Part shown: piece by piece, positions 2,355-43,899 of the stretch
Layout of the letters: every line of letters begins with the position of its first letter
Numbering within the stretch: the stretch's first letter is position 1
Assembly: GCA_001600815.1 (NCBI GenBank)
Contig: BCKZ01000006.1
Location: forward strand, 496,001 to 539,899
Reading direction: 5' to 3'
Source of the DNA: Alloascoidea hylecoeti
Lineage: Eukaryota
Length of the DNA stretch: 43,899 nt
The notes under the pieces: generated by a model
Told to the model about the DNA's origin: nothing
Seen by the model: only the letters and a program-made list of their open reading frames with translations
The model's database searches: none
Translations under genes and position numbers: made by a program

Positions 2355-4089
2355 ATGTCCTCGGGAAGAAGATTATCTGTCATCGATTTGGTGAGTGGAC
2401 CTAATGAACAGGTGAGTTTCTTCTTTATCCTTGGAAACACTATATGGGTTTTAACTCATTTTTTACATCTAGTCCCCATTAATTCGAACCCGTACTTTAT
2501 CAACGTCGGGAAATAGGCCATTCAAACTCCCTTCAAGGGTTGGGTCAGTTTCCGCAGGAGGAAGACGCGCTTCATTTTTACCATTGATTGAATCATATAC
2601 TTCAAATTTAAATAGAGCTGACGTCCTTCATGAATTGAGACCTTTTAGGTTAATTGGTTTAAGCCGGAGTCTTCGAGATTGGGATAAATTGAAGAAATCT
2701 GATGATGAATTAAATGAAGCACCTAAAAAGCTTCGAAACTTTTATGATAATCAAAATGAATTGATTGAAAGATATTTATCAATTGATCGTTTATTAGATT
2801 CAGGAATTCAAATAAATATGTTAAAAGTTTATGATTCAATTTCTCATAATAGTAATAATTCAAGAACTAATCAAGTTCCAGGAAATGTTGATCAAGAAAG
2901 TTCATCTTTTATACCAAATAGTCAAGAAGATTCACAAACGGTTTATATTGCAATTATGATTAATTTTGCAATTAATATTTTTTTATTAGGTGGAAAAGGT
3001 GTAACTGCTTTTTTAACAAGTTCAATGTCAATTATTGCTTCTTTAGTTGATTCGTTTTTAGATTTTTTATCAACGTTTATAATTTGGGGCAGTAATCAAT
3101 TGGTTGAACATCGAAATTGGTCTTCAAGAAATAAGTGTAAGTTATGGTTTTTTTGTTAACGTTTATTTAACACAGGTTATCCCTAACATTAACTTTTTAG
3201 ATCCCGTTGGTAAAAAACGTCTTGAACCAATTGGTGTTCTTGTCTTCTCAATCATCATAATTATATCTTTCGTTCAAGTTGCATCTCAATCCGTTCAACG
3301 ATTAATAGATGGTACTAGAGAAGCAGTAGCCGTTGGATTTTCTGCAACTTTAATAATGATCGTTACAATAGTTGTTAAACTTATTTGTTATGTATGGTGT
3401 AGAAGTATTAATTCATCTTCTATTCAAGCACTTGCTCAAGATGCTTTAACTGATGTTGTTTTTAAGTATGTTTTATAATTACTCTCTTGTTTTTCTGTGA
3501 TACTAACATTAATATTATTAGTACTTTTTCAATTCTAATCCCATTGGTTGGTCATCATTTTAATATATGGTGGTTTGATCCCTTTGGTGCTTTAGCTCTA
3601 TCAATCTATATAATCATTTCATGGGGCCAAACGTATGTATTCTTTCCATTATCACCAAAAAGTAATAATATTAACTATTTAAATTTACAATAGCGCTTTT
3701 CAACACATTGAAAATTTAACAGGTGCAAGAGCAGATCAAGAAGATATACAAATGATTTTATACTTGGCAATGAGATTTTCAGATTCGATTAAAGAAATTA
3801 GCATATTAAATGTTTATCATGTTGGTGATGGATTAAATGTTGAAATGGATGTTGTATTTGATGAAAAATTGGTATTAAAAGATGCTCATGATTTAGCTGA
3901 AACTTTACAATATGCTATTGAAACTTTACCAATGGTTGAAAGGGCTTTTGTTCATTTGGAGTATGTATTCTTTTTTTTTTTTTTTTTTTTTGCATTAAAT
4001 TTAAAGTTGACAATTAATTATATCTAACCTTTTTATTTTATCTGTTTAGCTACCGTCCTGATAATTTTACTGGTCATGTTCCTCAATAA
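2355..4089 (+). CDS. Cation diffusion facilitator (CDF/MTP-type) metal transporter, 6 exons: 2355-2411, 2473-3136, 3201-3465, 3522-3632, 3694-3960, 4050-4089
   Basis: All five introns GT..AG with frame preserved (donors GTGAGT/GTAAGT/GTATGT, TACTAAC at 3501); motifs ASLVDSFLDFLS, YPVGKKRLEPIG, ALAQDALTDV, WWFDPFG, AHDLAETLQ, VERAFVHLDY. Confidence 0.92.
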
Positions 4090-4334: not shown

Positions 4335-5501
4335 TTACTCAATATCCTTCTTAAGAGTTCCCAAGAAAGCATGTTTTTCAGCAGGTGTTTGGAATCTACC
4401 TTTACCAAATTTGGAAGCAGTATCAATCCATTTTAATTCAACCTTTTCTAAAGCACGTCTTGATGTGTCCTTGTATAAAGATTTTCTTAATGTTAAAACT
4501 CTCTTCTTAATACCTGGAGTAGAACCTTTAACAATGACGAAATCATTATTAATTTCACCGTATCTAACGAAACCACCTAATGGAGTAATTGTCTTTTGAG
4601 TTCTATCGAAAGCAGTAGCACCACTGTTTTCATCACCAGCTTTACCAATTCTGTAAATTTTGTGGTTAACAGAAGTTCTGTGATGATAACCGTTTTGACC
4701 GGCACGGGCAACTGTGGTTTGAACGTGGGCTGGATGCCAAGCACCAATACAGGCAACTTTTCTTAAACCTCTGTGTGTCTTTCTTGGAAGTTTCTTGGTA
4801 CCCCATCTGTGTGTAACACCTTCGAAACCATGACCCTTGGTGACAGCAATAACGTCAATCATTTCGTCTTGTTCAAAGACGGCATCGACAGAAACGGTCT
4901 TCTCGAAATGATCTCTGGCCCAGTCAACCTTTTCAGAGATTGAACCACCATTGATTTGGATTTCAGCCAAATGTGCTTTCTTTTGTGATAATGGAGTTTT
5001 TCTAATTTGAGTGTGTGCTAAAACTCGGATGACAGTTGATCTCTTCTTGATGCTTTCTAATTTCTCAGAAACGGCAGCACCACCTTCAGCGTATTGTGAA
5101 GCATATTTGGAGAAAGCCTTCTTCTTTGATTTGTACCAGTTCTTGTAGAAACGTCTTTTAACTTCATCAGAAAGATGTTCGGCCCAGACAGTTCCAATTG
5201 ATCTCAAACCTCTTGGGGTTTCAGCATAACCAACAACACCGACAACAACAAGTGGTGGAGTGTCGACAATTGTAACGGCTTCAACAACTTCACGCTTGTG
5301 CATCTTGGAACCAGGTCTGTCTAAATCTCTGACAATTGTAGTCATACCAGCTTTGTAACCGAGGAAAGCAGTCAAAGCAACAGATTTAGATTTATCATCT
5401 TTTGGGAATGACTTAACCTTACCTCTGTGTCTAGCAGCTCTCTTTCTTGGGCGGAATCCAAGGGATCCGTGTCTTGGTGCTTCAAACTTTCTGTGAGACA
5501 T
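4335..5501 (-). CDS. RPL3: 60S ribosomal protein L3 (uL3)
   Basis: [16 protein letters not shown] start, [22 protein letters not shown]; 388 aa, intronless. Confidence 0.99.
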
Positions 5502-5605
5502 TGTTGTTGATGTGATGAAGATGGGAATTGCAAAAAGAAAAGTTTCAATGTATATTAATTAGAATCTATTTCTTCATTGGGATTGTGACTGCTGATAAAC
5601 GTGTG

Positions 5606-5648
5606 AGCCCTAATGTGCATGATATTACCCGGATGTCATTATCACGTG
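5606..5648. promoter_or_regulatory. RPL3 promoter: Tbf1-like, Reb1-like and Cbf1 sites
   Basis: AGCCCTAA (=TTAGGGCT) 5606-5613, TTACCCGG 5625-5632, TCACGTG 5642-5648, 105-150 bp upstream of the RPL3 ATG. Confidence 0.6.
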
Positions 5649-5717
5649 CTGATTTTTTAGAACTATTTGAACTCTATTTATAAATTATATATCGTGAATC
5701 AACGGAATATTAAAACT

Positions 5718-6433
5718 ATTTCTACTGAACCCCAGCAAAACCAACAATCTAAACTAATTAAAGAACGATCACCACCTCTTCATATCACAACCTCCATCAC
5801 ACTTAGCCCTGGAGGAAGAGATATCCTCTCATGTAAGTATCCCCATCCCAAACATCTATAGAGATAATTAACTGATTAAATTGGGCACTTTTATATATAT
5901 ACCTTTTCTGCCAGATTTGCCTTCAACATTCGAATTACGAAGGAAACAGTGGAAATGATAGTTTTTGGTTAACTCCGTGGCCATATTATGTTCAAATCAT
6001 GTTGTTGGAGGACAATTTAATTCAAAACATTGCAAACATGAAAATTACCCTGTCCAGTTTGTAATGGTGAGGTTTCAGTTATTGGTTTAAATTCAAATGT
6101 ATTAATTTTTCACCCTATTATTAATAAATGTCAATAAATATTGATATTTACTTATAGCTACCTTTGGAATTAGCTCCTTATTTCGAGCCTTTTACTCGAC
6201 CTTTGGAATCTTTATTCGCATCAGCAAAAGTAGGTATGCAATTCTATTAACAATGGTAATAACATTGATATGAATAGTTTCAATACAGCAATCTTATAAA
6301 TCTAATAAATCATCAAAAGAGAGTAATTATGATATTACGTTCAAAAGTAACTGATCAAAGCAAAGTAATATTAATGAACTTGTTATGGCCAGAGCTCGAG
6401 ATTGAAAAAAGTACTAGCACTTTTCAATCCTAA
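5718..6433 (+). pseudogene. CST9: Degenerate spliced Zip3/Cst9 (RNF212-type) meiotic RING E3 ligase pseudogene
   Basis: Fragments in order: CQIC...FWLTP-/GHI/-CSNH.../CPVCNGEVSVIGLNSN, intron 6099-6157, LPLELAPYFEPFTRPLESLFASAK, intron 6230-6277, FQYSNL..LRSKV..QSKVI; at least 3 frameshifts in the RING exon, no in-frame ATG (ATT at 5718). Confidence 0.8.
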
Positions 6434-6688
6434 ATTTTATATTACTATTTATTTGTAACTGGTACACATAAATAAACTGCAATCTAACTAAAGATTATTA
6501 AGTTTCATATTAGATTTTTTTTCATAATGAAAATCTTATTAATTTCTTACCAATTATATTGCCATTAGCAAATTTCTGCCCGTATAACTTTTCGGTACCA
6601 GTGTTGGAAATCCAGATCATTAATTGTAAATAATTTACTGTTCCAGATATAATTATTTGTTATTCTTGTTCATATCCTTTATTTCATA

Positions 6689-6967
6689 TCAGAGTCTCAA
6701 TAATTTATGATGCTGTTGAAGAATAACTATGAGCCACTGTTGTAAACCGAAAACATAGCTGAGATATCCGGCCAAACAAAAGCCAAGGTAAGCTCCGGGA
6801 ATATACAAAAAAGCCCACATTGGGTCAAAATCTTCGATGGCAGAACTTGTATCAACAGAAAGGGCATCGGTTGATCCGTTAACGCTGCCAGAATTAGCCT
6901 TTAACGTGGCGGCGGAGACCAAAATAAGACAGGTACTAACAATGGTAAGAAATAATTTTAAAATCAT
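6689..6967 (-). CDS. Small orphan protein with signal peptide and one predicted TM helix
   Basis: 92 aa; hydrophobic N-terminus MILKLFLTIVSTCLILVSAA, Ser/Asn-rich spacer, hydrophobic WAFLYIPGAYLGFCLAGYLSYVFG. Confidence 0.5.
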   Translation of the reverse strand: MILKLFLTIVSTCLILVSAATLKANSGSVNGSTDALSVDTSSAIEDFDPMWAFLYIPGAYLGFCLAGYLSYVFGLQQWLIVILQQHHKLLRL

Positions 6968-7286
6968 GAGTGGTGATAGTGAAGAGGAAGAAGAAGTAAA
7001 TAATTTACAAGAAGGTTTTATTTATACCTTACATATTTACTATTATTATGTATATCTAGTTATCAACTTCATCATTAATGGCATTGCAGGCCATTTGCAA
7101 TGGCTTATATATATGTAAAAATTATAAATGAAGTTTAATTGCACGTGATTGAGATGAGATGCATATGCATATCATCGTATAATATAAAAAATCCCAAACC
7201 TTTCAGCCTTGAAACACCTATCATAAATGATCAAATTTCAGAGTCTTCAAATTTATTATTACATAAAATAATATGACACTTTTATA

Positions 7287-13175: not shown

Positions 13176-14034
13176 ATGGCGCCTCATGGACAAGCCACGG
13201 TAGGTACAGACCCCCATTTAACGGAGTGACCACTACGGATAGCATACTAATGACAAGACAGAGCAAGTTGAAAATGACACTCAAGATGAGCATCAACCGG
13301 CTTCGAATGAATCAGCAGAAACAGAGCGCACTTGCCAAACAGCAGCGCCGATCGATGGCGGAGCTGCTTGAGCAGGGCAAGGAGGAGAGCGCACGGATCC
13401 GGGTGGAGAACATCATCCGGGAGGACATAAACATCGAGCTGATGGAGATCATGGAGTTATACTGCGAGCTGCTGTTGGCTCGGATGGGGCTGTTGGAAGC
13501 CAAGTAAGTAGCCATGTTAATGCTGAGCACGGATGGGCCATTGATACTGACAGACACAGGGAATGCGACGTTGGGCTGGAAGAGGCTGTTTGCTCCATCA
13601 TTTACGCAGCTCCACGCACCCAGGTCCGGGAGCTGCAGCAGGTCCGCGACATGCTGATGATGAAGTTCGGCAAGGACTTCGCCATCCACGCCATGGAAAA
13701 CGCCGGCGGCGTGGTCCCGGAAAGAGTCACCAAACGCCTTTCTGTTGAGCCGCCCTCGCGGGAGCTGGTTTCGTTGTATCTGATGGAGATTGCGCGCGCC
13801 TACAGGGTCCCGTTTAGCGACCTGCACGACTCGGATGGCAGCGACGGAGGGGACAAATTCGCCACCCCCGTGGCAGAGGACGCGGTGTCGGCCGTCCACC
13901 CCGACCCGACCGAAACCGAGCCTCCCAGGAAGCTTCCTCTGCGGCAGCCTCTGCGGCCGAAAAAAGTGCCCAGCGCAGACGACAAAGAGCTGGACGACCT
14001 TAGAAAAAGGTTTGATGCGCTGAAGAAGTTGTGA
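13176..14034 (+). CDS. IST1: ESCRT-III-associated Vps4 regulator Ist1, 3 exons (13176-13199, 13262-13503, 13560-14034)
   Basis: Introns GTAGGT..CAG and GTAAGT..CAG with TACTAAT/TACTGAC branch points; ARIRVENIIRED, ELYCELLLAR, EAVCSIIYAAPR, C-terminal MIM LRKRFDALKKL. Confidence 0.93.
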
Positions 14035-21795: not shown

Positions 21796-23525
21796 GAAGT
21801 TTTGGATTTTAAATGATATATATAAAAGAGTATCAGTAGGATTTTGATATTTATATTTCTATATAAATGTTACATCTCCTAAGTTGCATAAAAGTTTTCC
21901 CAAAGCAGGTCGGCAGCAGTGCAGCATGGCCCCAACGCAGATCATTTGCGAGGCTGTTCGTAATTTGCTGACGCATCTTGGGTGCAACAGGGTCACCAGA
22001 TAAGTTATATTGGCTCTCGGCCCAAACCTCCGCCGGCGAGCTGTTAAGACCGAGAATTCCAATTTACGGCTCTTGGTGGATGACGTAAGGAACAGGCGAA
22101 GTAATCAAGTAATCCTCAGTTCACTGATTTTCACCTTAATTTGCACTTAATTTTAACCTTAATATCAACCCATCGACATCCGCATAGCATAGCCTAGCTA
22201 TATGTTCAAGTCACCACTTTATAACTAATATCGAAGCCGTATGTGAAGGAAGCAGAAAGAAAAGAAATGCATGTTAATATACGAAATCGGATGTGTCAAT
22301 CGTGTTTGATTATATCCAACTAATATGTAGTGTAGCTAATCTGTAACTGAAGTTCCAAAATCCTGATATCGTTACAACTATAGACATCAATAGAATGATA
22401 CAGAAACCGAAGACAACATATAGAGATTGGACTATAGGCATAAAGAGTAGATATTCCCCATAATAAAACTTATCCACTATCGGCAAATAGCTGGTAGACT
22501 TATAGAAAAAGATGAAATTGAAAATTTACTATTTGTGTCTTATTATTATGTTATAATTATCATTAATTACCGCATTACTATATAGCTGGGCCTTCAAATT
22601 TATTCCTATGAAACTTCATCTTATTCCCGATCAGTTCTTTATTAGATTCGATAGATATATCTAAAAGTATTTATTTAAGATTTGTTTTTGCATAATATAT
22701 TCCTTAAATATATGCATATTATTAATTTCGCACTATACGTTATATAAATGATAATGAATTATTATGAAGTAGAATGATTAACTTCTCCATATCTTATCAC
22801 CAGCTACTTATAACAGTCAAAGTTATATGCTTTGAAATATCAACATCTTGCAAATTCAATACAACCCTTCATTGCACAGCGGTAGCATATTAAAACGGTG
22901 CACGATTATCAATAAACAATGATCATTATCAATAAGCAATAATATCGAATTAAATGTAAAGGAACTCATTATCCGAATATTCTTGAGGACATTATTATGT
23001 CTTTGTCACATTTTAACACTACTTTAAGTGTTCTATAAATATATATTGTATTATCTAGTTTAGGGAGACAAGCAGAGATAACTTAGTCTAGTTCTTGACA
23101 GACGTCTGTATCTGTTTCCACTTTTATTTTTTAACTTTTCATATATTTTCCAATTAAATTATATAACTAGAAACTATGTAAATTCTGAGTAAATCTCTAC
23201 TATATATAGTGAAATAAAAACCTCTCTTTCTATTCTTCTTATTTTTGTGTATTCTTGACACTCTTCTTTCTTCCCTTCTTATGTACCTAGACCACCTTAA
23301 AAGTAAATTTTTTTTTTTTAGATATATTTTACTTTTTCAAGTTTTTAGAGATTAGAATCCCCCAATTAATCTCATTTAATATTTGTGGTGGTGTCCCTGC
23401 AAATCTAATATTTTTTCTTAGCTCTAGTGCCTTTTTGATCAAAGCCCATTTTTTTCTATATGGCACATATGTATATTGTATTTTTACTATGTTATTGATA
23501 GTTTACTTAACACTGAGAAGAATTT

Positions 23526-23619
23526 GACAGGCTGTCCGAGCGGTTAAGGAGATTGACTTGAATACATTAGTGTTATCAATTGGGCTTTGCCCGCGTAGGT
23601 TCGAATCCTGCGTCTGTCG
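23526..23619 (+). tRNA. tRNA-Ser(UGA) with 12-nt intron (23563-23574)
   Basis: Acceptor GACAGGC/GTCTGTC+G, anticodon stem ATTGA/TCAAT with TGA at 23559-23561, long variable arm GGGCTTTGCCC, GGTTCGAATCC, downstream poly-T; 82 nt mature. Confidence 0.95.
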
Positions 23620-24596
23620 TTAATTTTTTTGAACTTTTGGAAGCTGCATTGTCCTGCCGCCACTTCGTGGTAGTGATCGAGCCTCTTTTTTTTATTTATC
23701 TAATAACCTTTTATTATAACTGTAAAAGTTTATACGTAAATAGTATTACGCATACCAGTAAATTGCTCTACTATTCAAATAAATTAAATAGTTTAATTTA
23801 CCCTTTTAAAATAAAGTATTTAATATATAAACATATTATACATATCTAAATTGTAATTGTTAATGTAGATCTGATAAAAAAGAATTTGTGATAAAATGTC
23901 ACTTTTAAACGTTAACTGATATGCATATCTATTTATATTCGAAAGAAAACCCGTTTTTAACCAATTTACGATTCTCATTATATATTTTCATGTTATTGTA
24001 TCAAGCGCAAATCAGAACTTGCAATTGCCATTTCGATTCTCTCCTGTGTATTATATTTTCTTCAAGTTCCATGTGAAAAAATATTGTAGCTGATTTAGGT
24101 AGCAGTTAAAATTATTTAAAATATCTTTCGTGAGAAAATTCGGGTTAATAGTCGAAATTAAGTGGTTTATTAAGACACATAAAAGTGAATTTCAGTCAAT
24201 ATTGTTTATCTTTTCAGTTTATTCCATTGGCTGCTTTGAAAGATATTTATCTATATCTTTAGATCTATCTAAACTTACGTATTTTTCTTCAAGCATATAT
24301 TAAATTCACATATCTTTCATTACGGGTATCAAATTTCACAGCTTAAGAATTAGATGTGTGTAACGTAATATTTCCAGTAATCACTACTGTATTTGACTTT
24401 AAAATAAAACTAAATATTAATATTAATGATAATGATAATAATTATCTATAAGATCTATGTAAATATGGACTAAATGACATGCGAATTATTTATAAATATA
24501 ACATAAAAAAAGTAAATCAAGTTGCCTTAGTAAAAAACAAGATATAAATACTAAGCAGTAGTAAAATATATCTATAGTAAAAGCCTAGTTATATAA

Positions 24597-27500: not shown

Positions 27501-29090
27501 AAAAGCACCAGATGTTCCTGACGGGATATTCCAATAACACGAACCAATAATCAAACCTTTAATAATAAATGTACTAAGATAGATAAGTTGATATGAAATT
27601 TCACCATGTTGTCTTTGAAAACCTCTTGTAACCAAGTGTTTGATCTGTGAAGGATAAGAAACAACAAAACGGGATTTCTTTCTTTGAAGACTTTCTTTTC
27701 TTTGAGCATTGACTGCTTCCAATCTAGATTTGGTTTCCTCATATGTATGAGAACCTGTATAATCATCATATTCAGCAAGACATTCTTGATATTCAGGAGA
27801 ACTTAACCAGTATTGCTCGAATTCTTGAGCTGTAGTTGGGACTTTCTCTTCCATACCCTTTTGAGGAAATCTACCATTAGGATCGGTAACAGATGTTAAA
27901 AATTCAGGAGTAGTCATTCTTGAAGGACAATCCCAACCCATCCTTAAGAAATAATCTTTGGCTTTTGTGGCAGGGCCAAAATAAATTTGTCTACCAAGAT
28001 ATAGGATTGTAACTTTATCGAATAATGTGTAAATATTTTCACCAGCTTGGTAAATTGCAACAAGAGCAGAGTTATTTAATAAATTCGTAGCTGTACGGAT
28101 AGCCTGGGCGAATTCCAAAGCTGTAGAAGCATCAAGACCTCTGGTAGCATTATCCCAAGCATAAATAGATGCGTTACAAGCTAAAGCCTCAACGATAGAA
28201 ACTCTCTTTCTCTCACCACCGGAAACACCACGAACGAAATCATTTCCTACTTTAGTATTATATGTATGGCGTAAACCAAATACTGTACACCATAAATCTC
28301 TCATTGTATCAATATACTCGGGACGATTTAAACCATCGACTCTTGTTGCAGGAGTTTTCATCTTCAAAGCGAAATCAATAGTATCCTTAACTTTCAAATG
28401 AGGGAAATGTGTATCTAGTTCAGGATTATAAACAACGTATCCTTTATACACCTCCATCATTTGTTCTTGGCTAAGACCATCGTAAGAGAATTCTCCCGTT
28501 ACAGACACAAGTTCTGAAGTTTCACCAGAACAACATTTTAATAGAGTAGAACAACCAGCACCTGGTCTACCAATAACAAAACACATTTCACCAGCTTTGA
28601 CTACACCAGTGACATTTTCGATAATATTTCTCACGGGTTTCTTTTCCCTTTTGAATAACTTTCCAGGGAGACTAAGAAATCCTCTTGCCATTTCTTCAAC
28701 AGAAGGACCATATGCAGCTGACACATCCACACCAGTTGCAGTAAGCCCTTTGAAAGCAACACCAGCCGCACTATCTTCAATTCCTTGTTCGAGACCCTTT
28801 GAATTCAAATAGTGGAGTAAGACTTGAAGATCGAAATCATCAGGATCCACTTCGAAACGACCTTGAGCAGCAACACGTCTTGATAAAGACCTAGCTAAAG
28901 ATTGGATTCTTTCAACGGCGTTTTGATCACTTAAAACCGTACGCAGATGCTCGGAAAAAGCCTCTTCTTCGTTATTTCCTTCCAAATCTCTTGTTTTTGA
29001 ACGACTCATTGATAAATTATTTTTGGGTTTATAAGAAGCAACCTCTTCATTATCACCCTTGAAACTTTCTACAGACGAATCTGAAGCCAT
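24597..29090 (-). CDS. PDR12: Full-size PDR-family ABC transporter, Pdr12-like (copy 1)
   Basis: NBD-TMD-NBD-TMD; GRPGAGCST, VSGGERKRVSI, WDNATRGLD, GESGAGKTT, LNVEQRKKLSIGVEL; Pdr12-like GVDVSAAYGPSVEEM. Confidence 0.88.
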   Translation of the reverse strand: MASDSSVESFKGDNEEVASYKPKNNLSMSRSKTRDLEGNNEEEAFSEHLRTVLSDQNAVERIQSLARSLSRRVAAQGRFEVDPDDFDLQVLLHYLNSKGLEQGIEDSAAGVAFKGLTATGVDVSAAYGPSVEEMARGFLSLPGKLFKREKKPVRNIIENVTGVVKAGEMCFVIGRPGAGCSTLLKCCSGETSELVSVTGEFSYDGLSQEQMMEVYKGYVVYNPELDTHFPHLKVKDTIDFALKMKTPATRVDGLNRPEYIDTMRDLWCTVFGLRHTYNTKVGNDFVRGVSGGERKRVSIVEALACNASIYAWDNATRGLDASTALEFAQAIRTATNLLNNSALVAIYQAGENIYTLFDKVTILYLGRQIYFGPATKAKDYFLRMGWDCPSRMTTPEFLTSVTDPNGRFPQKGMEEKVPTTAQEFEQYWLSSPEYQECLAEYDDYTGSHTYEETKSRLEAVNAQRKESLQRKKSRFVVSYPSQIKHLVTRGFQRQHGEISYQLIYLSTFIIKGLIIGSCYWNIPSGTSGAFSRGGILFYCLFYCAATSLAEISHAFSFRPIILKQKSYSMYHQSAEAIQEIITEFPTKIVAVIILVLTTYWMPHLRHSAGTFFMYFAFLLQAQQCMSFLFKIVATLTTDGTTAHAVAGLTVLILCIYTGFVIPLPEMHHWAKWINWINPLRYSLESLVATEFHHREMSCDQVVPSGTGYESVSASNQVCAFTGSKPGQTFITGEDYIKDNYSFEFKHVWRNFGINIAWCAAFAIINVAFSEFVKSVTAGGDMLLFKRGFMPDTNKETADSRVATRDEMIEILNGPGVDLEKAIAEKDVFSWQNVDYVIPYEGATRQLLNNIQGYVKPGTMTALMGESGAGKTTLLNVLSQRINFGVITGDMLVNGRGIDASFQRRTGYVQQQDLHLAEYSVRESLRFAAELRQPAEVPISEKHEYVEKIINLLGMQDYAEAIIGKIGRGLNVEQRKKLSIGVELVAKPSLLLFLDEPTSGLDSQSAWSIIQFLRALADSGQAILCTIHQPSATLFEVFDRLLLLKKGGQTVYFGDIGPNSSTMLSYFERQSGVECGVSENPAEYILNCIGAGATASASSDWHDLWITSPEFAKETAVITQLHHDLPMRQKADTGEHNLTSKFATNWFTQYWCVFRRTGLQFWRSPVYIFAKFFESIVCSLFVGFSFISINHTVAGASQPLLVIFMMLIVALAMINQIHVFAYASRELFEVRESASNTFHWSTLLLAQASWEIIWCMICQFICWACFYWGPHFSGRPQECGYFFLVFVIMFPIYYVTFGLWIIYFSPNVPSASVINSLIFPMLMLFCGILQPYNLMPGFWTFMYKVSPFTYFVQSFVXPLVHNRKLVCGESEYNIVTPPEGQTCGAFLNTYIDNNGGYVKDVSATSNCQYCAYTSQETVMEAYNIRWSYRWRNFGFMFVYIIFNVVAMLGMYYLFRVKVWSLKSILDFQNWFKGGRKERHEEPSKVFESKPGDEKVIKN

Positions 29091-29313
29091 TTTGCTAACA
29101 GGATCAATGTGTTAGTATCTATATTTAAGTTTAAATTGACACTTGCAGTATACTTACCATTAACTTATAATTGTGATATCAATTGCAATGAAAAATGAGA
29201 ATAGAAAATAGAGTAACGAGGAAATCCAGCTGCTTATATACATTTGAAATAAACTACTGTTTAGGATGAGTATTAATTTCAATTAGCAATCTTTGAGTGA
29301 ATAAAAAGATAAA
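28375..29313 (-). repeat. Left arm of long inverted repeat (portion matched within the window)
   Basis: Reverse complement matches 42961-43899; the same antisense 71-aa ORF occurs at 28597-28812 and 43462-43677. Confidence 0.95.
29095..29157 (-). other. 5' leader intron of ABC transporter copy 1 (63 nt)
   Basis: GTAAGT...TACTAAC...TAG ending 4 nt before the ATG. Confidence 0.85.
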
Positions 29314-42960: not shown

Positions 42961-43899
42961 TTTATCTTTTTATTCACTCAAAGATTGCTAATTGAAATTA
43001 ATACTCATCCTAAACAGTAGTTTATTTCAAATGTATATAAGCAGCTGGATTTCCTCGTTACTCTATTTTCTATTCTCATTTTTCATTGCAATTGATATCA
43101 CAATTATAAGTTAATGGTAAGTATACTGCAAGTGTCAATTTAAACTTAAATATAGATACTAACACATTGATCCTGTTAGCAAAATGGCTTCAGATTCGTC
43201 TGTAGAAAGTTTCAAGGGTGATAATGAAGAGGTTGCTTCTTATAAACCCAAAAATAATTTATCAATGAGTCGTTCAAAAACAAGAGATTTGGAAGGAAAT
43301 AACGAAGAAGAGGCTTTTTCCGAGCATCTGCGTACGGTTTTAAGTGATCAAAACGCCGTTGAAAGAATCCAATCTTTAGCTAGGTCTTTATCAAGACGTG
43401 TTGCTGCTCAAGGTCGTTTCGAAGTGGATCCTGATGATTTCGATCTTCAAGTCTTACTCCACTATTTGAATTCAAAGGGTCTCGAACAAGGAATTGAAGA
43501 TAGTGCGGCTGGTGTTGCTTTCAAAGGGCTTACTGCAACTGGTGTGGATGTGTCAGCTGCATATGGTCCTTCTGTTGAAGAAATGGCAAGAGGATTTCTT
43601 AGTCTCCCTGGAAAGTTATTCAAAAGGGAAAAGAAACCCGTGAGAAATATTATCGAAAATGTCACTGGTGTAGTCAAAGCTGGTGAAATGTGTTTTGTTA
43701 TTGGTAGACCAGGTGCTGGTTGTTCTACTCTATTAAAATGTTGTTCTGGTGAAACTTCAGAACTTGTGTCTGTAACGGGAGAATTCTCTTACGATGGTCT
43801 TAGCCAAGAACAAATGATGGAGGTGTATAAAGGATACGTTGTTTATAATCCTGAACTAGATACACATTTCCCTCATTTGAAAGTTAAGGATACTATTGA
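42961..43899 (+). repeat. Right arm of long inverted repeat, runs off window end
   Basis: Matches reverse complement of 28375-29313 with no mismatch noticed by eye. Confidence 0.95.
43184..43899 (+). CDS. PDR12: Pdr12-like ABC transporter copy 2, 3'-partial (leader intron 43117-43179)
   Basis: ATGGCTTCAGATTCG = MASDSS..., same sequence as copy 1 to the window end. Confidence 0.9.
   Translation, partial: MASDSSVESFKGDNEEVASYKPKNNLSMSRSKTRDLEGNNEEEAFSEHLRTVLSDQNAVERIQSLARSLSRRVAAQGRFEVDPDDFDLQVLLHYLNSKGLEQGIEDSAAGVAFKGLTATGVDVSAAYGPSVEEMARGFLSLPGKLFKREKKPVRNIIENVTGVVKAGEMCFVIGRPGAGCSTLLKCCSGETSELVSVTGEFSYDGLSQEQMMEVYKGYVVYNPELDTHFPHLKVKDTI

Follow-up and report, generated by a model that had tools for sequence, protein, structure and literature searches.

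A broken RING exon beside RPL3 is probably a decaying duplicate of a Zip3/HEI10-type gene

In Alloascoidea hylecoeti, a broken RING exon lies next to RPL3, which encodes a ribosomal protein. The exon is a real pseudogene and probably the decaying duplicate of a Zip3/HEI10-type gene whose second copy, with an intact RING exon, sits elsewhere in the same genome. The first-pass annotation of this DNA had recognized a ZIP3/CST9 pseudogene here and had taken it as evidence that Zip3 has disappeared from the lineage, which in turn would point to loss of the ZMM pathway or of meiosis. Homology to the protein P0003 and lesions that are real bear out the relic of a RING gene, likely of Zip3/HEI10 type. 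The loss, on the other hand, is not supported: an intact RING exon, P0003, exists, and its end is letter for letter the variant contig found in sequencing reads.

Zip3/RNF212/HEI10 proteins are E3 ligases (SUMO and/or ubiquitin) in which the RING recruits the E2 enzyme, and they mark and stabilize recombination sites destined for class I (ZMM) crossovers.

RESULTS

The relic neighbors an intact RPL3 gene

The window, i.e., the whole stretch of 43,899 nt that was analyzed, is AT-rich (32.5% G+C, with one N) and of budding-yeast type, and its gene layout consists of long single-exon genes and a few short introns. Features of the locus are collected in Table 1. The best match of RPL3, which neighbors the relic and lies outside it, was PDB chain 7pzy_k (E = 1.7e-223, residues 1-388 aligned). 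Upstream of RPL3 we noted CCCTAA at 5608-5613 and CACGTG at 5643-5648, which we take to resemble, respectively, the Tbf1 and Cbf1 sites that yeasts other than those of the Saccharomyces group have in the promoters of ribosomal-protein genes.

Table 1. Features of the RPL3-side locus, in window coordinates
Feature	Position	Strand	Details
RPL3 (uL3) gene, intact	4335-5501	-	388 codons and a stop; open frame
Broken RING exon	5882-6098	+	Homologous to P0003 residues 1-73
CQIC, first zinc-ligand pair	5909-5920	+	Frame of 5876 (three-frame translation)
First lesion cluster	5975-5988	+	1 nt missing near 5975-5977 (-1); alignment to P0003
GHI	Around 5980-5988	+	Frame next to that of CQIC
CSNH, ligands 5 and 6	5989-6000	+	Third frame, other than that of CQIC
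Second lesion cluster	6001-6026	+	Extra codons at 6001 and 6007; 2 nt missing near 6025
Extra base C	6050	+	Directly before CPVC; shifts this pair out of the frame of CQIC
CPVC, last zinc-ligand pair	6051-6062	+	Three-frame translation and alignment to P0003
Patch common to both copies	6068-6232 (165 nt)	+	6068-6110 and 6201-6232 identical; 6111-6200 variant
Putative intron 1, GTATTA...TAG	6099-6157	+	59 nt; donor non-consensus, same in both copies; P0003 frame enters and stops
Exon 2, LPLELAPYFEPFTRPLESLFASAK	6158-6229	+	24 codons; open in both copies
Putative intron 2, GTAGGT...TAG	6230-6277	+	48 nt; second copy diverges at 6233, the G of intron position 4
Last open frame, starting FQ	6278-6433	+	51 codons and TAA; possible helical or coiled-coil part

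Several other features of the window were recorded. A cation-efflux (CDF) gene at 2473-3999, with Pfam domains Cation_efflux and ZT_dimer, has introns at 3137-3200, 3466-3521 and 3633-3693 and is open for 448 codons when spliced. The sole tRNA gene, a 96-nt tRNA-Ser (anticodon TGA), lies at 23525-23620. At 13200-14000, over an IST1-like gene, G+C content rises to 52-67% per 100 nt against the window mean; this island, which includes a GTAAGT intron near 13506, may reflect biased gene conversion, introgression or foreign origin. Positions 42961-43899 and 28375-29313 form a perfect inverted copy (939/939 bases) that reaches the window end and comprises the 5' end and upstream region of a 1504-codon PDR-type ABC transporter gene; it may have arisen by recent inverted duplication or from a join made in assembly. 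CTG codons are scarce, with 6 in seven window genes, too few to tell the genetic code.

The RING exon of the window copy is disabled

Three-frame translation recovered all of the RING motif pieces reported by the first-pass annotation (CQIC, GHI, CSNH and CPVC), scattered over three reading frames between 5909 and 6062. Its count of at least three small indels likewise holds, as three lesions break the frame, with two of their positions in need of revision: the indels had been put near 5978, 5988 and 6045, and alignment to P0003 places them near 5975, 6025 and 6050, the exact placement of lesions in the window copy being alignment-dependent. Codon differences that keep the frame were found at 5983, 6001, 6007 and 6066, with a codon missing at the last. 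Two zinc ligands are gone altogether, as GTG stands for Cys33 of P0003 and the codon for His35 is absent. The window copy also has no start codon, with TGG at the methionine of P0003 and an in-frame TAA upstream at 5873-5875.

When five single-frame pieces of the window copy were compared with Pfam, no RING family was detected and four of the five pieces matched no family; the stretch 6042-6134 gave two zinc-ribbon matches only, both sub-threshold (E = 0.044 and 0.068). The pattern CxxC/CxxH/CxxC, read in any frames, occurs at four window sites (three distinct sequences) against 0.13 expected from 200 shuffles, and by itself this bare pattern is weak evidence because it is insufficiently rare. 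Self-BLAST detected no second RING copy within the window.

The first-pass annotation had also proposed an ATT start near 5718, followed by an exon 1 and a first intron from 5833. This model was abandoned: the methionine of P0003 lies nine residues before the first cysteine, inside the RING exon, and therefore no upstream exon is needed. The candidate exon itself (5718-5832, plus strand) has no Met in frame, and no Pfam family was found for 5661-5861.

A nameless 86-residue protein carries the intact RING exon

To search for relatives, positions 5876-6430 read in one frame, with X at stops (query P0002), were compared with 1,835,955,588 proteins in a full HMMER search. A single protein, P0003, reached E ≤ 0.001 (E = 6.4e-05); it is nameless, 86 aa long, the sole member of its cluster, and encoded on an NCBI contig of 4950 nt. 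Its order is Met, CQIC nine residues on, LTSCAHILCSNH, CPVC, the residues encoded at 6069-6110, a few more and a stop. All eight zinc ligands are kept, and the frame is open across 73 codons. Since P0003 stops soon past the residues equivalent to 6110, it represents a RING exon that a gene caller read into the intron.

Homology between P0003 and the window copy was evident in two further comparisons. By tblastn, P0003 matched the window in two pieces in different frames, 5900-6049 and 6042-6125, with a joint E of 2e-17. A frameshift-aware alignment of P0003 residues 1-73 with 5860-6100 scored 211, against -10.8 ± 11.2 (maximum 24) for 60 shuffles, and over residues 7-73 the two are identical at 49 of 67 positions. 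Word-based protein searches in the "longer" length class returned 2, 30 and 16 candidates, none of which scored as a relative; the protein atlas, queried with the broken piece, gave no usable match, and no mention of the P0003 motif strings was found in the literature. The structure model of P0003 had a mean pLDDT of 45.9, too low to be of use in comparing folds.

An N-terminal RING (zf-RING_5, PF14634) is thus present in P0003 and absent from the window copy. The window copy is homologous to an intact exon, retains the intron, and bears disabling lesions that independent reads confirm, as described below; it is the relic of a RING family member and not a member itself.

Independent reads reproduce the lesions and reveal a second sequence

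Ten sequencing runs were listed in the run search, six of which, from three studies, contain the stretch or part of it; none is recorded as RNA. Contigs of runs X1, X2, X4 and X5 were compared with positions 5500-6700. X1 and X2 are isolate runs, possibly from the window's own strain or source, with contigs built separately from reads, and X4 is a wood-decay metagenome, which is independent but contains mixed organisms. In X1, X2 and X4, representing three studies, a single contig covers 5500-6097 with no differing letters and no gaps, and the X5 contig is identical to the window over 5976-6232. Reproduction of the indels in contigs of three studies means that they are not errors of this assembly, and assembly error was accordingly rejected as the source of the frame breaks.

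Downstream of 6067, the reads contain a second sequence. In both X1 and X2, short shared contigs interrupt the path at 6068-6110 (43 nt) and at 6201-6232 (32 nt), and three of these four have about double depth (18.4 and 16 versus about 9 in X1; 45.5 versus about 20 in X2), the fourth, the 43-nt contig of X2, being undoubled (25.3 versus 22.7). In X4, one contig with twice the depth of its flanks spans 6068-6232; relative to the window it carries 12 substitutions and 8 gap letters, and 6111-6200 in the form that the window has was not seen in this metagenome. The alternative path of X1 and X2 did not appear in the comparison, probably because it falls below the 88% threshold. The second sequence diverges from the window at 6067 and again at 6233, so a patch of 165 nt is common to both, with different flanks on either side.

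When the differences of the X4 variant were applied to the window and translated, the product was exactly the last 23 residues of P0003, its intronic part included. Because the variant path is the end of P0003 and the contigs of the isolate runs split at these positions too, the intact copy seems to belong to the same genome. An intact copy elsewhere is the outcome that the first-pass annotation had set in advance against its own pathway claim, and it has largely been found: the intact RING exon is there, on a second copy known in part.

A small RNA or a repeat element was considered as the origin of the patch and rejected. Rfam gave no matches over 5500-6800, and the patch is therefore no known RNA gene; in addition, its translation matches P0003. 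A metagenome scan with the exact 31-mer of 6068-6098 returned no stretches.

Two additional stretches of the locus resemble or adjoin other contigs. Between RPL3 and the relic, 35 of the 38 letters at 5739-5776 match another single-depth contig of 2.2-3.7 kb in X1, X2 and X4; that contig extends 1290 nt downstream and is therefore not the second RING copy at a collinear distance. In X1, X2 and X4, the contigs with their start at 6203 have the same length, 769 nt, and terminate near 6971 (about 6941-6971), which points to a further branch point there, and perhaps to another patch common to a second locus.

The downstream exon is open in both copies

The first-pass annotation had described the peptide LPLELAPYFEPFTRPLESLFASAK and, after it, an open frame from FQ; both are present (Table 1). 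Its "two clean introns" were upheld in part: both gaps bear stops, and neither is clean, as their donors, GTATTA and GTAGGT, contrast with those of the five frame-restoring introns of the window, which are GTAAGT (one), GTATGT (three) and GTACGT (one). In GTATTA, position 5 is not the G common to all five, and GTAGGT has at position 4 a G that is found in none of them. Judged by these sequences, both introns are putative, that of the intact copy with its GTATTA donor included. If spliced as modeled, the gene would have about 148 codons by our count.

Between the copies, exon 2 shows seven substitutions in 72 bases, which alter three residues; neither an indel nor a stop interrupts it, and all five indels between the copies fall within 6111-6144. 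This distribution fits an intron at 6099-6157 together with coding constraint on exon 2 in at least one copy.

The post-RING part (6158-6433) had no relative in the word-based protein search or the HMMER search and no Pfam family. Its translation, P0001, likewise gave no Pfam family and no PDB match, and a metagenome protein-pattern scan matched 46 stretches, none of which was confirmed. A single-sequence model of P0001 contains helices at 3-29, 42-63 and 66-76, with a mean pLDDT of only 49.6, again too low for a comparison of folds.

The condition of the second copy bears directly on whether the lineage retains Zip3. This copy is known from the RING exon (as protein, 86 residues) and the 165-nt patch only, and therefore it may be broken further on. 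If it were also dead downstream of the RING exon, or unspliced, there would be two relics and functional Zip3 would have been lost in the lineage. We consider this unlikely. It would agree with the non-consensus GTATTA donor common to both copies, with the failure of the HMMER search to return any further exon-like protein of the second copy, and with the repeated losses of ZMM genes in yeasts reported in the available part of PMC11460703. Against it, the second copy has its Met, eight ligands, 73 open codons and a Pfam score above the cut-off, and its exon 2 is open and free of indels; missing HMMER matches tell little, given that short internal exons without a start are not called as proteins. 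Our preferred reading is that the second copy would be intact over its full length.

The intact exon is likely of Zip3/HEI10 type

Against Pfam, P0003 matched zf-RING_5 (PF14634; E = 1.4e-10, 41.4 bits, cut-off 27.9), and the next RING model, zf-C3HC4, was far weaker (E = 0.0019). PF14634 is named as the RING domain of S. cerevisiae CST9 in the available part of PMC6638150, and the Zip3 and HEI10 groups share an N-terminal RING, a conserved helical segment, a coiled coil and a variable tail (PMC3405992). When P0003 was compared with 177,635 distinct PDB sequences, the best match was HEI10/CCNB1IP1 (9ges_A), a weak one confined to the RING (E = 0.13); among these sequences there was accordingly no significant alignment of P0003 to a named Zip3, RNF212 or HEI10. 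In the intact copy, the RING lies at the extreme N-terminus and the sixth ligand is His. Pfam family, ligand pattern and best PDB match suggest that the family is likely Zip3/HEI10-type.

It is, by comparison, doubtful that the relic derives from another RING gene that happens to fall in zf-RING_5. That model is a general RING model, the clusters nearest to P0003 in the protein atlas are unnamed fungal zf-RING_5 groups, which provide a lead only, the HEI10 match is weak, and a gene of about 148 codons is short. Arguing the other way are the wide gap between zf-RING_5 and zf-C3HC4, the N-terminal position of the RING with its His ligand, the fact that among solved RINGs it is a meiotic ligase that matches best, and the link of PF14634 to CST9, as far as the available text of PMC6638150 goes. 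The Zip3/HEI10-type assignment is therefore the one we retain.

The two copies are probably paralogues

In the reads, one single-depth contig without branches joins the broken exon to all of RPL3, from 3994 (X1), 4193 (X2) or 4086 (X4) to 6097, and the 31-mers of RPL3 are common to no second sequence. An allele, or the second parental version in a hybrid, of a gene as conserved as RPL3 would share 31-mers with it and would thereby break the contig, so a paralogous locus is favored over an allele, short of proof. The broken and intact forms could otherwise be two alleles, or the parental versions of one locus in a hybrid, with the broken form a heterozygous null; this we judge improbable, slightly more so than the readings above. 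The depth of the two forms is roughly equal, the intact form lies on a short contig, as is often true of alternative haplotypes, and contigs sum to about 25-27 million letters per isolate run, all of which would agree with an allelic pair; RPL3 and the broken exon nevertheless stay on one unbranched contig in three runs, and both flanks of the 165-nt patch are unlike. Two paralogues in one genome are therefore what we infer.

Finally, that the RPL3-side copy still functions through unusual splicing or programmed frameshifting is barely credible, for although the frame 5876-6064 is free of stops over 62 codons in spite of the lesions, a start codon and six of the eight ligands are missing from it. 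To rebuild the RING, three shifts, not all in one direction, would have to take place within 80 nt; no frame contains the codons of two of the ligands, and no single-frame piece contains a Pfam RING.

DISCUSSION

The explanation that we favor, a decaying duplicate with a second copy elsewhere, can be outlined as follows. The living form of the gene would encode Met, nine residues, a RING of the form C-x2-C...C-x-H-x2-C-x2-H...C-x2-C, and, past a short intron, an exon of 24 codons. The RPL3-side copy is unable to encode a RING protein of this kind, with no start codon, three indels that spread its four ligand pairs over three frames, two zinc ligands lost, and a G at position 4 of the second intron donor. 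The second copy, with the intact RING exon, would lie elsewhere in the genome, on the 4950-nt NCBI contig. The near-identical patch at 6068-6232 suggests that the copies may still exchange sequence: in the X4 metagenome, the patch at the RPL3-side locus is apparently in the form of the other copy, and this sharing presumably results from ectopic gene conversion between the copies.

A more radical possibility, which we also regard as unlikely, is that both copies are dead or dying, that this wood-dwelling yeast is shedding Zip3 and perhaps ZMM, and that conversion between relics is still patching 165 nt in a manner polymorphic among wild strains. In a milder variant, the conserved GTATTA donor may mark a meiosis-regulated intron, such that the surviving copy is switched on only in meiosis.

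The intact copy resembles Zip3/Cst9 and the Zip3/RNF212/HEI10 family (PANTHER PTHR22663, PMC3405992) in its N-terminal PF14634 RING, the domain given for CST9 in the available part of PMC6638150, in a post-RING part that is helical in a low-confidence model, and in having HEI10 as its best solved relative (E = 0.13). It differs from that family in that the gene is much shorter, with the variable C-terminal tail not seen, in its two short putative introns with non-consensus donors, and in that no named member aligns with it significantly; the window copy, moreover, has no working RING.

Relics of this kind have precedents. According to the available part of bioRxiv 10.1101/750497, Zip3, Msh4 and Msh5 are pseudogenes in Aspergillus nidulans and A. 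rugulosus. As described there, those Zip3 relics share with the RPL3-side copy a recognizable ZMM-type RING, frameshifts, a start-codon change and altered splice sites; there, however, the pseudogene has no second copy and its decay is accompanied by that of Msh4 and Msh5, whereas here an intact RING exon persists elsewhere. In budding yeasts, the portions of PMC11460703 and PMC9851511 available to us report ZMM losses in Lachancea after L. kluyveri and of SPO16 and MSH5 in K. lactis. The present case is similar in that a crossover-designation gene is decaying in a budding yeast, and it is unlike them, to the extent that these sources describe their cases, in that those losses are lineage-wide while here a single copy, out of two, is demonstrably dead. 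Zip3 relics and yeast ZMM losses being already known, the RPL3-side relic is a new case, and an ordinary one.

The polymorphic patch between the copies would illustrate ectopic gene conversion in a population of wild yeast, cleanly and on a small scale. For the family, our results indicate that the RING exon of a Zip3-type gene can escape annotation in intron-bearing budding yeasts, as the intact exon is recorded only as a nameless 86-residue fragment. According to the available part of PMC6638150, the CST9 homologue of Candida albicans "lacked" the RING domain; by analogy, a separate unannotated RING exon may explain this. Mainly, the finding serves as a correction: one broken meiotic gene does not amount to the loss of a pathway where a second copy exists.
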